A stretch of DNA of 64,000 nt from Candidatus Enterousia sp. (lineage in GTDB: Bacteria > Pseudomonadota > Alphaproteobacteria > Rs-D84), in NCBI GenBank assembly GCA_045651525.1, contig JAZRSO010000032.1:4523-68522 (forward strand). The letters are read 5' to 3'. How positions within the stretch are numbered: the first letter of the stretch is position 1; each line of letters begins with the position of its first letter. Below are positions 47,180-52,048 of the stretch, piece after piece. Made by a program: the position numbers and the translations under genes. Below the pieces are notes generated by a model, which saw only the letters and a list, made by a program, of their open reading frames with translations, was not told the origin of the DNA and did not search any database.

Positions 47180-49150
47180 ATGAAACACTTTAAGCGCTTT
47201 TTTATATTGGTTTTGTGCGTCCTGCCATGGGTTGCGGGGGCGAATGTTGCGACCACCGCGGGCAGTAATTTAACCGCATGGAACAGTAATGGTGGTTCGG
47301 CCAATAACAATAATTGGAATACCATGATGAACAGCCGTTCACAAACAGGCAGCAAGGCCAAGGCTGATTTTGGTAATTGTAATTCACTGATACTGCGTTG
47401 TGCGCAACCAAAGTGTGCGGCATGTACCACAATGGAATTGGCCAAGCCTGTGGTTTCTGGTTGTGTAAATTCCAGCAAGGATTGTAAAAAACACGGTGAT
47501 GATTTAGTTGAATTTATTGCTGCCCAGATTGTGGCCAGTGCTGCTGAAAAGGTTCAGGCGCAACAGTTGGCACAACAACAGGCTGCGGCGCAGGCTGCCG
47601 CTGCACAAAGCAGTCAGCAAATGGCCCAAATGCAACAGCAAATGGCCCAGATGCAGCAACAAATGCAACAACAAAATGCCCAACAAATGGCACAAATGCA
47701 GGCGGCACTGGATGAACAAAAGGCGTTGGCTGCCCAGGCACAGGCCCAGGCCGTCGCCGCACAACAGGCCAAGGCAGAGGCGGCCGCACAAACGGCATCT
47801 GGAATTACTGTTGCACAACAGGCGGCAGCCCAGGCTGGAATAAACCCAGATCTGTTGGTTCGTGAACAGGCGGGTGGTGAAATATTGTCTGCGTTGGAAG
47901 ATGCCGAACAGAATCTGAAAAATCTGAAAAACACGATGAAAGATGTGTTTGATTATGCCGGGTGTGATGCGCGTGGTAATAATTGTTCGGGGCCAAAACG
48001 CGTAAAAATATTCAAGGACAAGGCCAGAAGTTTTTTTGAACCATATGATGAAATTGCAGACGAATTATATACAGCATTGGATACCGCACTGTTGTTGGGT
48101 GTTGATGTAAATGATATTTTGATGATGTTAAACGGTTCGTGTAATCGTTGGGGACGATACATGTGTCATTCAAATGGAACGGATGGCAATGATAATCCAA
48201 TTCATAAAGTTGCAAGATATGGTGATTCAAACTCAGAGTGCAAAAATGGTGTGGTAAAGGACAGTTGTATAAACGGCAAATCGCAAAATATATCATGCAC
48301 AGATAACGGTGTAACGTACAGTGTCAAAGGTGGTTTTGATTGTACGGTTGGCATGGTTGTTCCACCCCAGGACGATGCGTTATGTACCCTGATTGGATAC
48401 CTGTCGGATGAAGAAAAAGACGGCGTGTATCGTGAATGGGTTGATGAAAATTATGACGGCGATCGCATGGTACGTTTGGGATGCGTATCATCTGTTTTGG
48501 ATTCTGTAAAAACGTTCAGTCGTCGTTCCAATAAAAAGGCCAGCACATTGGATATTGATACACTGGAACGTATTTTGGAACAAGATTCATCTGATATGGC
48601 GGGCAGTCGATATGATGCCAAAGTACGCGATATGGAACGTTTGCAGTATTGTGGTTTGACGGTTGACGGATATCGCAAATTGAACAAGGCGGTCAGCACA
48701 CAAAAATTTAGCCAAAACGACGTTTGTATCGATTCCGCAAAATTGCGCAAGGACGCAATTAATGCAGACTGGGTTCGTTCTGTAAAGGGCAACAGCGCCA
48801 GTTTCTTGGATCATATACCAGAGGCATATGATCAGACATCTTGCACAGATTTGGGGGCCGGCAATGCATGTTGGTATGACAGTGATAAAAAATGTTATGT
48901 GCGTGGTAAAAAACACACAGATGGTGTATGTATAGATAATGGTGGTACTGTTCTTGGTGAATTTAAATACTGGAATGGGGCGTCGGTGACAGAGGCTACA
49001 TCAGGCGAAGACAAATGTCGACTTCGTGGTGGCAGTTGGGTGACCAAGGATGATGCGTCCCAGAAGAAGTACACGTTTGAAGCAAATGACACCGGTTGTT
49101 GTGATTCAGACGACAGTAAAGTGAACGACTTAAAGTGTAAAAAAAAGTGA
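47180..49150 (+). CDS. Secreted Cys-rich protein with a Gln/Ala/Met-rich repeat region (656 aa)
   Basis: Signal peptide MKHFKRFFILVLCVLPWVAGA; QQMAQMQQQMAQMQQQMQQQNAQQMAQMQ tract; many Cys residues. Confidence 0.65.
   Translation: MKHFKRFFILVLCVLPWVAGANVATTAGSNLTAWNSNGGSANNNNWNTMMNSRSQTGSKAKADFGNCNSLILRCAQPKCAACTTMELAKPVVSGCVNSSKDCKKHGDDLVEFIAAQIVASAAEKVQAQQLAQQQAAAQAAAAQSSQQMAQMQQQMAQMQQQMQQQNAQQMAQMQAALDEQKALAAQAQAQAVAAQQAKAEAAAQTASGITVAQQAAAQAGINPDLLVREQAGGEILSALEDAEQNLKNLKNTMKDVFDYAGCDARGNNCSGPKRVKIFKDKARSFFEPYDEIADELYTALDTALLLGVDVNDILMMLNGSCNRWGRYMCHSNGTDGNDNPIHKVARYGDSNSECKNGVVKDSCINGKSQNISCTDNGVTYSVKGGFDCTVGMVVPPQDDALCTLIGYLSDEEKDGVYREWVDENYDGDRMVRLGCVSSVLDSVKTFSRRSNKKASTLDIDTLERILEQDSSDMAGSRYDAKVRDMERLQYCGLTVDGYRKLNKAVSTQKFSQNDVCIDSAKLRKDAINADWVRSVKGNSASFLDHIPEAYDQTSCTDLGAGNACWYDSDKKCYVRGKKHTDGVCIDNGGTVLGEFKYWNGASVTEATSGEDKCRLRGGSWVTKDDASQKKYTFEANDTGCCDSDDSKVNDLKCKKK
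47540..47830 (+). repeat. Low-complexity CAR/GCN/ATG coding repeat (imperfect ~21-bp periodicity)
   Basis: CAGCAAATGGCCCAAATGCAA / CAGCAAATGGCCCAGATGCAG tandem units at about 47614-47655; generates spurious mirror ORFs on both strands. Confidence 0.7.
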
Positions 49151-49159
49151 CGACCAACA

Positions 49160-49933
49160 GTGAGGGATAAGTTGAAACAGGTAATTAAAAGATTTTTGGT
49201 TTGTATGTGTGCGTTGTTCCTGACGTGCGTTGGTGTTGTGCCATCGTGGGGGGCAGATGATGCATGTATGTCCGAAGATAATGATATGATTGGCGCGCCA
49301 TTTGTTTTGTGTTCAACGCATGCGTATAATATCGGTATGACAGAAAACCCAAATGCATCAGATCGTGAACTGATGCGGGAAGTTGTGGGGTTGAAAACAA
49401 CATTCTTTACACAACAAATGTATAAACAATACGAACAGATGGAATTGATGGTGCGACGCTTGAAAACACAGCTGCAAAAGGCGGTGTTGCATGATAAATT
49501 ACAGGTCGCCAGTGGTGCCACAGGTAACAGTGATGATGATAATGACGATTCTGCGCCAAGTAACAGATATATTAAATTGTCTGGTGCCCAGGATTGTACA
49601 GATTTCTGGTCCAAGGCGGATAAGTTTAAATGCCTTAGTGAAAATTATAATCTGGTAAAAAATCAGGTCAGAACAGGAAATCCGTCGGCTGATCACAGAA
49701 AACAAGTGGCAAATGATTACGGAATTGCATGTGGTGGTGTAAAAGAGTGTTCAAAGATCGAAAAATGTACAAAAACAACCAAAAATAAAAAAGATTTTGA
49801 TGAATGTTTCCAAGCGTTACAAACGCTGATAAGTACAGGTATGTCAGAGGCACAACAAGATGCCGCCAGACTTAATAATCCATTTGCAGGATGGGGCCCA
49901 CAAACACAGAAAGAATCACAAACACAGAAATAA
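49160..49933 (+). CDS. Secreted Cys-containing hypothetical protein (257 aa)
   Basis: Hydrophobic N-terminus FLVCMCALFLTCVGVVPSWGA|DD. GTG start 9 nt after the preceding stop; start uncertain. Confidence 0.55.
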   Translation: MRDKLKQVIKRFLVCMCALFLTCVGVVPSWGADDACMSEDNDMIGAPFVLCSTHAYNIGMTENPNASDRELMREVVGLKTTFFTQQMYKQYEQMELMVRRLKTQLQKAVLHDKLQVASGATGNSDDDNDDSAPSNRYIKLSGAQDCTDFWSKADKFKCLSENYNLVKNQVRTGNPSADHRKQVANDYGIACGGVKECSKIEKCTKTTKNKKDFDECFQALQTLISTGMSEAQQDAARLNNPFAGWGPQTQKESQTQK

Positions 49934-49935
49934 TA

Positions 49936-49960
49936 ATCCCGCCCCGCGGGATTTTTTTTT
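49936..49960 (+). terminator. Rho-independent terminator
   Basis: ATCCCGC-CCC-GCGGGAT hairpin followed by T9. Confidence 0.75.
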
Positions 49961-49975
49961 ATGTTTTTTGTCATT

Positions 49976-50143
49976 GTGTTGTTTCCCCGCCCCCATTGTG
50001 GGGCGGGTCGGAATCGCCGACAATTTATTGTCGCTGTGATTCCGGGGTGGGGGCGAGTGTTCAAGAATAAAATCCCCCCACCCAAGTTTCCGTAATTGCA
50101 TACGCAATAACGTTCACTATCCCGCCCCACACGGGGGCAGGTG
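49976..50143 (+). repeat. GC-rich structured direct repeat, copy 1 (family G)
   Basis: Differs from 50584..50749 by one substitution and one C-run indel by eye. Contains hairpins CCCGCCCC/GGGGCGGG, GGAATC..CGACAAT/ATTGTCG..GATTCC and GGGTGGGGG/CCCCCACCC. Confidence 0.9.
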
Positions 50144-50202
50144 GTAAATGTGCTTGATTTATATTTTTCTTGTTTCATACTTAGCAAAAAGGGTTTCTTG
50201 TA

Positions 50203-50580
50203 ATGAATAATCCAAAAACATTGCGTGCCAGAAATTTGCGACAAAATATGTCTGAGATGGAAAAAAGATTTTGGTATCGGATAAACCGAAATCAGATTGG
50301 GGTAAAGTTTCGCAGGCAACAACCAATTGGACCCTATTTTGTAGATTTTATTTGTTTCCCATTAAAATTGGTGATTGAACTCGATGGAGAACAACATGCG
50401 AAAAATATAGAATACGATAATCGCCGAACTACATATATAGAATCACAAGGATTTAAATTGATACGTATACCGAATTCATGGCTGATTGGAAACGGTATTG
50501 ATGACGTTGTGTTTTCATTACAACGTTGCATAAATGAAGATATTGATATTCATGAATATTTTATGTCCAAGTATCAGTAA
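50203..50580 (+). CDS. DUF559 (Vsr-like endonuclease fold) domain protein
   Basis: ARNLRQNMSEMEKRFWYRI...GVKFRRQQPIGPYFVDFICFPLKLVIELDGEQH...GFKLIRIPN matches the DUF559 pattern. Confidence 0.8.
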   Translation: MNNPKTLRARNLRQNMSEMEKRFWYRINRNQIGVKFRRQQPIGPYFVDFICFPLKLVIELDGEQHAKNIEYDNRRTTYIESQGFKLIRIPNSWLIGNGIDDVVFSLQRCINEDIDIHEYFMSKYQ

Positions 50581-50583
50581 ATA

Positions 50584-50749
50584 GTGTTTTCCCCGCCCAC
50601 ATTGTGGGGCGGGTCGGAATCGCCGACAATTTATTGTCGCTGTGATTCCGGGGTGGGGGCGAGTGTTCAAGAATAAAATCCCCCCCACCCAAGTTTCCGT
50701 AATTGCATACGCAATAACGTTCACTATCCCGCCCCACACGGGGGCAGGG
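50584..50749 (+). repeat. GC-rich structured direct repeat, copy 2 (family G)
   Basis: Same orientation as, and near-identical to, 49976..50143. Confidence 0.9.
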
Positions 50750-50779
50750 GGGCTTCGCAAAATGGGAACGTGGGAATTT

Positions 50780-52048
50780 TTATTCTTTCTTTAATTGTTC
50801 GCGCAGTTTGTCCCAATATTCAAGGCGCTTTTTAATTTCGCGTTCAAACCCGCGTTCAACGGGAAAATAATATTTCTGGCGACCCATGGATTCGGGAAAA
50901 CAATTCTGGCCGGAAAATCCGTTTGCTGTATCGGGGTCGTAAATGTATCCGTCGTTATAGCCCAAATCTTTCATCATTTTTGTTGGTGCGTTCAAAATGT
51001 TTTTTGGTGGCATCAGTGAACCGGTGGCGCGCGCCGCGGCGTATGCCGCCTTTTGTGCCTTGTAATTGCCAATGCTTTTTGGCGCGGTGCCCAAATATAT
51101 CACCAGTTGTGTCAGGGCCAAGTCCCCCTCTGGACTGCCCAGGCGTTCGTACGCGTTCCATGCTGCAATCGCAACCTGTAATGCGTTCGGGTCGGCCAGA
51201 CCAACATCTTCGACCGCAAAGCGGGTCAATCTGCGAAACAGGTACATTGGATCCTGGCCAGATGTCATCATGCGCGCCGCCCAATACAGTGCCGCATCTG
51301 TGTCACTGGCACGCAGGGATTTATGCACCGCAGATATTAAATTATAATGTTCGTCGCCATGTTTGTCTGATAATGGTGCACGTTTCTGTACGGCGGAATC
51401 CAAGGTGTCTGGCGTTAAAGGTTCTTTGAATTTTGCGTTTGATAAATATTCAACAGTGTTTAATAAAAAGCGTGCGTCGCCATCTGCCATCTGTGCCAGA
51501 TGGGTGCGGGCATCGTCTGTCAGTGGTAATTTTATACCCAAGAATTTTTCCGCGCGTCCTATCAATTCCATTAAATCTTCGGTGGAAAGTCCCGACAGTA
51601 CACCAACGTGGCAACGTGACAGCAATGCGTTGTTCAAATTAAAACTGGGGTTTTCTGTTGTTGCGCCCATAAATACAACGGTGCCATCTTCTAAATATGG
51701 TAATAGTGTATCCTGTTGGGTTTTATTAAATCGATGAATTTCATCAATAAACAGTAATGTGTTGCGGCCAATGTCGCAATTCATACGCGCGGCATCCATC
51801 GCCTTTTTTATATCTGCTGTGCCAGAAAACACCGCAGACATTGGAACAAAATCCATATCAACAGAATTTGCCAATGCACGCGCAATCGTTGTCTTGCCAC
51901 ATCCGGGCGGGCCCCATAAAATCAAATTTGATAATTTCTGACCGTCAACCATACGACGAACCAGACCGTTTTCACCCAATAATGTCTTTTGACCCACAAT
52001 GTCATCTATTGTGTTCGGACGCATTAAATCTGCAAGCGGTCGTGTCAT
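50780..52048 (-). CDS. rarA: Replication-associated recombination protein A (RarA/MgsA AAA+ ATPase)
   Basis: Walker A LILWGPPGCGKTT, Walker B LFIDEIHRF, C-terminal MgsA domain. Confidence 0.92.
   Translation of the reverse strand: MTRPLADLMRPNTIDDIVGQKTLLGENGLVRRMVDGQKLSNLILWGPPGCGKTTIARALANSVDMDFVPMSAVFSGTADIKKAMDAARMNCDIGRNTLLFIDEIHRFNKTQQDTLLPYLEDGTVVFMGATTENPSFNLNNALLSRCHVGVLSGLSTEDLMELIGRAEKFLGIKLPLTDDARTHLAQMADGDARFLLNTVEYLSNAKFKEPLTPDTLDSAVQKRAPLSDKHGDEHYNLISAVHKSLRASDTDAALYWAARMMTSGQDPMYLFRRLTRFAVEDVGLADPNALQVAIAAWNAYERLGSPEGDLALTQLVIYLGTAPKSIGNYKAQKAAYAAARATGSLMPPKNILNAPTKMMKDLGYNDGYIYDPDTANGFSGQNCFPESMGRQKYYFPVERGFEREIKKRLEYWDKLREQLKKE

Follow-up and report, generated by a model that had tools for sequence, protein, structure and literature searches.

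A DUF559 nuclease gene between GC-rich composite palindromes, a probable mobile cassette in tiny-genome gut Alphaproteobacteria

Introduction

Why does a small nuclease gene lie between two near-identical, GC-rich direct repeats in a genome of about 1.05 Mb? The question is raised by a locus in the window, i.e., the whole 64,000-nt stretch analyzed here, from an assembly of Candidatus Enterousia sp. (G000) that is 96% complete in 39 contigs. An original prediction, made from the nucleotide sequence, described such repeats around a DUF559 open reading frame and proposed either a small mobile or homing cassette or a pair formed by a non-coding RNA and a protein. To our knowledge, DUF559 is a very large bacterial family whose function is not established. 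Similarly, we know of no published protein partner for BoxC repeats and, over 30 years, of no enzyme for BoxC/triplex-type and many other GC-rich palindromic repeats. Full-text literature searches returned no paper linking DUF559 with repeats or mobility. A Caulobacter DUF559 protein was proposed as a Vsr-type repair enzyme (PMC12907096), and predicted inversion targets show a 14-fold enrichment in DUF559 genes (PMC9881135), which fits the inverted flanks described below. Here, we establish the anatomy and the copy history of the locus, the co-occurrence of its gene and repeats, the polymorphism of the site, the selection acting on the protein and the conservation of the hairpins.

Results

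Layout of the locus

On the forward strand, the cassette consists of R1 (49985-50141, according to the limits of its box structure), the DUF559 gene (50203-50580) and R2 (50591-50748), which is the same unit in the same orientation as R1 and begins 10 nt past the stop codon. The repeats were found where they had been predicted, with 98% identity. Between the limits of the unit, a single base is substituted (C/A at 49993/50599) and a C-run counts 6 versus 7 C, i.e., the one substitution and the one C-run indel previously counted by eye. Their homology begins about 3 nt before the box-defined starts, at 49982 and 50588, and the two copies part 1 nt beyond the unit (GGCAGGtgg versus GGCAGGggg). 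The GC content of R is 57%, against 33% for the DUF559 gene and 39.8% for the genome, so that the repeats are indeed richer in GC than the gene and its surroundings. R1 and the gene are separated by an AT-rich spacer of 61 nt (50142..50202, forward strand, 26% GC), which carries TTGATT at 50154-50159 and a Shine-Dalgarno-like AAGGG. This spacer is presumed to be the promoter region of the nuclease gene; a scan of it for the sigma-70 consensus gave no match. The same type of spacer is found in the second cassette of this genome, on contig C20, and a similar one in G159.

Upstream, an intrinsic terminator made of a stem-loop and a T-run (49935..49953, forward strand) ends a gene for a 257-aa Cys-rich protein. 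It lies outside the cassette, in the left host flank, and is seen in all three alleles of the site. At the left junction, the forward-strand segment ttgtcattgtgt (49968..49979) matches the beginning of a terminal inverted repeat from a different repeat family (TTGTCATTGCGAGG...), which brackets a GIY-YIG gene at the same site in conspecific contigs. Direct comparison of the window with L140, L145, and L142 identifies ttgtcattgtgt as a remnant of that family. The right host flank is rarA/mgsA (50780..52048, reverse strand), which served as anchor for the comparison of alleles between strains and species.

The DUF559 gene

The intact 125-aa ORF (50203..50580, forward strand) matched the Pfam family DUF559 (PF04480) with an E-value of 2.8e-32 and 111.3 bits, for a cut-off of 20.6, and its nearest solved structure is a DUF559 protein of Neisseria (PDB 3HRL, E=8.6e-21). 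According to these matches, it would be the gene of a Vsr-fold PD-(D/E)XK nuclease. The catalytic-type residues D48, E59, D61, Q64, and H65 (D ... E-x-D-G-x-Q-H) are conserved across the clade: in an alignment of 22 members, D48, D61, G62, and Q64 are invariant, and at least 90% have E59 and H65. Between the window gene and its C20 paralogue, dS is 0.66 and dN 0.07. The resulting dN/dS of 0.11 indicates that the DUF559 protein is under purifying selection. The nuclease is the sole ORF of the cassette, which encodes no transposase of a known class (DDE, HUH, serine, or tyrosine).

R is a pair of inverted modules

R is assembled as a mosaic from three conserved GC boxes with interchangeable hairpins, a point absent from the original prediction. 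The boxes are A (GGGGGCAGG; complement a, CCTGCCCCC), B (GGGGCGGG; complement b, CCCGCCCC) and C (GGGTGGGGG; complement c, CCCCCACCC). In the window, they follow the order b-B-hp2-C-loop-c-hp4-b-A, the hairpins between them being richer in AT. On the forward strand, R1 thus runs from a box b (49985-49994) through a loop to box B (GGGGCGGG, 50000-50007), hairpin hp2 (50010-50043) and box C (GGGGTGGGGG, 50044-50053). After a loop of 20 nt come box c (CCCCCCACCC, 50074-50083), hairpin hp4 (50084-50120), a second box b (CCCGCCCC, 50121-50128), the loop ACAC and box A (GGGGGCAGG, 50133-50141). In other words, R is a head-to-head pair of inverted modules, one per strand. Each module is composed of a C-rich box, a short loop, the G-rich box B GGGGCGGG, a variable hairpin of 35-45 nt and a mirrored G-rich box, GGGTGGGGG; read 3' to 5', box C mirrors box B with a T opposite a C. 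The corresponding pattern, CC(T/C)GCCCC - loop - GGGGCGGG - hairpin - GGGTGGGG, has seven matches in G000, all of them in the four R units of this genome.

Folding of R as single-stranded DNA gave -52.4 kcal/mol for the forward strand and -51.4 kcal/mol for the reverse strand (z of -7.7 and -7.8), and none of 200 shuffled sequences folded as well. All five hairpins of the original prediction exist in R. Besides, the two terminal GC boxes pair with each other in the minimum-energy fold, which makes the whole unit one branched palindrome. On the basis of this folding, R could be extruded into a branched cruciform or, in single-stranded DNA, fold. Across 98 modules from eight genomes and six genera, the spacer between boxes B and C is a hairpin in 62 of the 63 distinct sequences (median z of -5.7), with stems that are wholly different in sequence. 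Hence, the fold of these hairpins is conserved while their sequence is free to change. A search of Rfam over positions 49000-52000 at E<=1 gave no match, nor did a distant blastn of the cassette against plasmids and phages; a known RNA or the end of an insertion sequence (IS), either of which would have spoken against the original prediction, was therefore not found in these searches.

Two cassettes in one genome

Further copies, which the original prediction had proposed to look for, were found in G000 as well as in relatives. Exactly four full R copies are present in G000 and all four flank DUF559 genes, which excludes chance. The second cassette, at an unrelated locus on contig C20, is 86% identical to that of the window, and the outer R ends are the exact limits of the homology between the two. 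When the four R copies were aligned, 21 variable sites sorted them by cassette and none by position. Within each cassette, the R copies thus share an ancestor younger than the split between the cassettes; being mutually closest, R1 and R2 either undergo ongoing conversion or arise from a duplication of R at each insertion. G000 contains no solo R, only these two cassettes, both of them old (dS 0.66). A simple segmental duplication is ruled out by the family-wide distribution reported below. A candidate duplication of 18 nt that surrounds the C20 cassette (gaaaaaaactttgtcat / gaaaaacaactctttgtcac) was rejected as it is imperfect and better explained by a neighboring TTTGTCA repeat family.

Alleles at the same site

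The exact RarA of the window is not on record, and alleles were therefore collected through the near-identical RarA of L090. Contigs whose RarA proteins are identical residue for residue carry three alleles: R-DUF559-R (L141, on the same contig as L090), a single R (L142), and a GIY-YIG gene between direct copies of the TTGTCATTGCGAGG...-type element (L140, L143, and L144). The same GIY-YIG cassette was found in L145 and L146 through the neighboring Cys-rich protein. Between the same two genes, the sister species G234 has an empty intergenic region of about 30 nt, G216 retains only the decayed 3' end of R, and G231 has a GIY-YIG gene with other repeats. Solo and empty alleles, which the original prediction had also proposed to look for, thus exist in L142 and G234, respectively. 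Hybrid cassettes that join a C20-type left part to a window-type gene and R2 are present at both loci in two independent assemblies, namely L098 at the C20 locus and L097 at the window locus; like the solo-R allele, they come from short-read metagenome assemblies, in which a repeat of 160 bp is open to mis-joins. In L097, another DUF559 gene lies directly upstream, resulting in a tandem gene-R-gene-R arrangement. Scans of JGI metagenomes returned no solo-R junction; the junction between R2 and the right flank, used as positive control, was likewise absent, so that the species is not in that collection.

Distribution of gene and repeat among relatives

The family was sampled through 201 genomes. 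Thirteen genomes belonging to seven genera have close homologues of this DUF559 clade (at least 44% identity). The repeat signature CCCGCCCC-N3-9-GGGGCAGG is present in 25 of the 201 genomes, against one hit in total for a reversed control pattern. It is found in all 13 genomes with the gene clade versus 12 of the 188 without it, bearing in mind that the pattern was built from gene-bearing genomes and that related genomes are non-independent samples. Several of these 12 are incomplete metagenome-assembled genomes (MAGs), and some may be true orphans. Signature counts reach 96 in G013, 40 in G004, 36 in G018 and 29 in G065, and the R family is spread over at least 10 genera. Both the gene and the signature are absent from the five species that rank closest to G000 by rarA identity.

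In relatives from at least six genera, a unit a-B-C...c-b-A is found either solo (157-200 bp) or with a DUF559 gene at its center. The canonical solo element is a-B-C-(~20 nt)-c-b-A, and the gene replaces the central loop in the canonical gene-bearing element (G018, G104, G002, G041, G019, G067, and G123), with box C 4-15 nt ahead of the ATG and box c 2-8 nt past the stop codon. Hence, two types can be distinguished, type I with the gene central in one unit (a-B-C-gene-c-b-A) and type II with the gene between whole units, as in the window. Most relatives are of the former type, the gene being inside one unit rather than between two, which the original prediction had missed. In G000 and G159, the gene lies between whole units and is preceded by an AT-rich spacer of a common type; in G065, it lies between units with a degenerate left end ahead. 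Both orientations of R are seen, and the units lie on either side of the gene, in tandem arrays and also far away from DUF559 genes. Solo and gene-bearing units have the a-B-C / c-b-A ends in common, in G018 together with shared outer inverted repeats.

G067 contains about five full copies, 94-98% alike, to which AT-rich inverted ends of 57 nt have been added. At least three more copies, at different loci, have one common internal deletion (codons ~5-52) with both ends intact, and a fourth deleted copy has a related, further deletion. The 57-nt inverted repeats are common to full and internally deleted copies; the latter are non-autonomous derivatives that multiplied. Gain, loss and inter-locus copying of units are thus observed across alleles and relatives, as is the production of non-autonomous derivatives, among which the gene-less solo units and the internally deleted copies can probably be counted. 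No target-site duplication was visible at the flanks examined, most insertions being without a sufficiently close filled/empty pair.

Other DUF559 clades

In other clades (37-45% identity), the small stand-alone DUF559 genes also have GC-rich box-hairpin-box modules of their own as flanks. A flank match of at least 16 nt, inverted or direct, was found at 19 of 23 small stand-alone DUF559 loci and at none of seven DUF559 domains located within long ORFs. In G000, the background for such a match was 10 of 234 small ORFs and two of 288 random segments. The enzyme clade and the box sequence change together. Separately, flank repeats were noted in G000 around other small ORFs (C4:81204, C19:10036, C32:140075, and C31:6543), which by eye are not nuclease-like.

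Discussion

A probable mobile cassette and its mechanism

Taken together, the region is probably one copy of a selfish, recombinationally mobile cassette that combines a Vsr-fold DUF559 gene with its cognate GC-rich composite palindromes, and it seems to belong to an undescribed "nuclease plus palindrome" family, selfish in nature, in gut bacteria with tiny genomes. The small mobile or homing cassette of the original prediction is thereby supported by a second cassette, by the empty site of G234, by solo-R and alternative alleles, and by the multiplied and deleted copies of relatives. We infer both that R is the substrate of the DUF559 enzyme and by which route the DNA moves. The nuclease would recognize and nick its own modules, and repair from another copy, through gene conversion or homing-like copying, would spread and homogenize both gene and repeats. 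Such a model would explain the near-identity of R1 and R2, the inter-locus hybrids, the coexistence of filled, solo and empty alleles, and the expansion of copies in some genomes. As Vsr nicks T:G mismatches, the conserved T·G wobble in the a:B stem (CCTGCCCC/GGGGCGGG) may, speculatively, be a candidate cut site. Repair after cutting would copy the gene and/or duplicate the whole palindrome. Under a more far-reaching proposal, to which we give only tentative credit, DUF559 would be the missing protein partner of BoxC/TMECO-like repeats and the cassette a new class of mobile element, with a Vsr-fold nuclease that cuts the extruded palindrome as its sole protein. This cut-and-duplicate reading would explain the R-gene-R arrangement with near-identical R, the solo units and the concerted evolution.

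Comparison with known systems

By analogy, the best reading is that the cassette behaves like REPIN/RAYT or miniature inverted-repeat (MITE) systems, with a different enzyme. REP, REPIN, and BIME repeats with their REP-associated tyrosine transposase RAYT (PMC3333891) are also GC-rich extragenic palindromes, often in inverted doublets and mosaic arrays; they likewise flank the gene of their cognate enzyme, co-occur with it across genomes and are specific in sequence to the enzyme clade. However, RAYT is a HUH Y1 transposase whereas the enzyme here is a PD-(D/E)XK DUF559 protein of the Vsr fold, and a RAYT search (PF01797) of G000 gave no match while control genomes were detected. The present system also differs from REP/RAYT in that its gene can be multicopy and yields internally deleted derivatives, and in that its units are about 160 bp long with three box types. 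IS and MITE elements share with it the inverted ends, the short gene-less derivatives and internally deleted copies such as those multiplied in G067, but no known transposase class is encoded here and no target-site duplication was found at the flanks examined.

The modules also recall the BoxC / PIT / TM(ECO) intrastrand-triplex repeats of E. coli and other bacteria (Holder et al., 2015; PMC4666352). Both are intergenic and tied to locus variability, and both have three consecutive blocks, i.e., a pyrimidine block, a short loop, a purine block and then a mirrored purine block. Nevertheless, the boxes are CCTGCCCCC/GGGGCGGG/GGGTGGGGG here versus CCCTCNCCC/GGGNGAGGG/GGGNGAGGG in TMECO, and a hairpin of 35-45 nt replaces the second loop of 3 nt, so that the three-block design is present in modified form only. 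The TMECO consensus CCCTCNCCC-N3-6-GGGNGAGGG-N3-GGGNGAGGG (PMC4666352) had no match in G000, while the same regular expression finds a copy beside ycjD of E. coli. In the K-12 strain, this DUF559 gene is followed 168 nt downstream by a strict TMECO copy, and its stop codon lies within a degenerate one.

A Vsr-type PD-(D/E)XK catalytic fold is also found in I-Bth0305I (EDxHD family), a homing endonuclease encoded by a group I intron in a phage gene (PMC3239194), which is a selfish gene with filled and empty alleles at one site as well. In that case, however, the target is a unique coding sequence, unlike the free-standing, intergenic gene studied here, which lies within dispersed palindromic repeats that also exist without it. 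As for homing endonuclease genes, R-gene-R (L141/L090) and solo R (L142) alternate next to identical RarA, the contigs being metagenome assemblies. Finally, integron cassettes resemble the locus by a structured, imperfect palindrome beside a small gene, and by gain, loss and tandem arrays; they differ from it since here no IntI is nearby, the R ends have no attC cores, the gene of the cassette is itself a nuclease and the inverted-end layout is common.

Alternative explanations

As the main rival explanation, the nuclease would be a passenger. Palindromic units would then spread otherwise, through host recombination or replication or an unidentified factor acting in trans, and pile up in permissive intergenic hotspots where DUF559 would be a Vsr-like repair or defense gene. 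This would account for the 12 genomes that have the repeat signature without the gene clade, for the use of the site by a GIY-YIG cassette with other repeats in conspecific contigs and in G231, and for target-site duplications not being seen at the flanks examined; the repair role proposed for the Caulobacter protein also points in this direction. Moreover, part of the signal could reflect a general hotspot for junk DNA, since an unrelated cassette uses the same intergenic site. Yet the repeat accompanies the gene in 13 of 13 gene-clade genomes and the gene is alone in none, its placement inside the unit is exact to the base across genera, and the cognate boxes differ between DUF559 clades. 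In addition, the deleted copies of G067 kept both ends and multiplied as a unit, and DUF559 domains fused into long proteins are without such flanks. On balance, a passenger nuclease is an unlikely explanation of the locus.

The non-coding RNA-protein pair envisaged by the original prediction is not supported, as R exists in both orientations, on both sides of the gene or without it, and is quasi-palindromic at the DNA level. More generally, R could be a structured RNA (regulatory leader, terminator, mRNA stabilizer, or small RNA) acting together with the DUF559 gene or controlling it. Its strong folding and the hairpins kept despite changed sequence would be expected of such an RNA, and REP-type elements act as mRNA stabilizers or terminators. 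This is nevertheless most improbable, considering that Rfam gave no match at E<=1, that the units are found in both orientations relative to the gene and its neighbors, on both sides, in arrays and far from DUF559, that the fold is equally strong on both strands and that no T-run follows the terminal hairpins. An equally improbable alternative is an integron-like cassette, with R as an attC-type folded site and a tyrosine recombinase that moves a circle of the gene and one R. Direct, structured and imperfectly palindromic sites around the gene, the solo-R allele, the tandem gene-R-gene-R of L097 and four tyrosine recombinase genes in the genome would be in line with it. Against this, no recombinase is adjacent, the nearest being about 15 kb away and, as its size of 318 aa suggests, of the Xer type; attC cores (RYYYAAC...GTTRRRY) are absent from R, and the inverted ends that enclose the gene within one unit in most relatives are never seen in integron cassettes.

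Significance

A reproducible pairing of nuclease and palindrome would give both DUF559 and GC-rich palindromic repeats a testable function. If the selfish-cassette reading is true, a nuclease-only element would be added to the known kinds of mobile DNA. In gut Alphaproteobacteria with genomes of roughly 1 Mb, this cassette family would then be one of the main origins of turnover between genes and of breaks in assemblies.

Arrangement of DUF559 elements and their repeats

Contig L097 (region 1-300), which carries a near-identical rarA and probably belongs to the same species as the window, has a second, 68% identical DUF559 gene. This gene is followed directly by a half unit of the GC-rich palindromic repeat R (c-hp4-b-A), then by a spacer and by the window-type gene, so that the arrangement is gene-R-gene-R in tandem. 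In the related genome G067, DUF559 elements with an internal deletion were found at several loci (L068, L069, L070 and L071), sharing a common breakpoint with the microhomology AAAACAT. The right flank starts with GCRGTAA... in every one of them, which suggests that such elements favour a particular target or are part of a composite repeat of larger size.

In G000, the genome holding the window, an inverted-repeat element of the TTGTCA family (TTTGTCAC...GTGACAAAG; L005:1266-1445, on contig C20) immediately follows the second R-DUF559-R cassette, and “ctttgtcat” is also found ahead of this cassette. Therefore, the R-type and TTGTCA-family repeats seem to insert into or beside each other. Two further a:B hairpins (CCTGCCCCC..GGGGCGGG), at C15:25144-25164 (L135) and C36:72934-72955 (L136), have no DUF559 gene nearby and stand at the end of another GC-rich repeat that they share (...ctcctccctgggaggag...gggaggtgggttgccc...), which may represent a third mosaic repeat family having one box in common. 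Three other small ORFs of this genome are flanked by repeats of 77-94 nt (C4:81204-81630, C19:10036-10462 and C32:140075-140396, the last lying beyond the end of the window at C32:68522), and by eye their products do not resemble nucleases.

At the ycjD locus of E. coli K-12 (L147, NC_000913.3, 1351206-1351760), the 3' end of this DUF559 gene falls within CCCTCTCCC-TGAAAGA-GCGAGGGGG. Downstream, ahead of fabI, are found both a degenerate duplicate of this 3' end and a strict copy of the TMECO/BoxC triplex-motif repeat.

A GIY-YIG cassette at the same intergenic site

Between the Cys-rich gene and rarA, where the window has its DUF559 cassette, conspecific contigs (L140:3770-4484; L145:2820-3534) and species G231 (L079, 2240-2860) hold a different mini-cassette, whose gene encodes a GIY-YIG nuclease of 60-102 aa. 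This gene is bracketed by copies of a ~120-bp element of the TTGTCA family with the ends TTGTCATTGCGAGG.../...CCCTCGCGATGACAAAG. The two copies have the same orientation in the conspecific contigs but opposite orientations in G231, and of this element only the first 12 nt remain in the window (49968-49979). The GIY-YIG mini-cassette is a second family of the type “small nuclease plus own palindrome”, in the same lineage as the DUF559 one.
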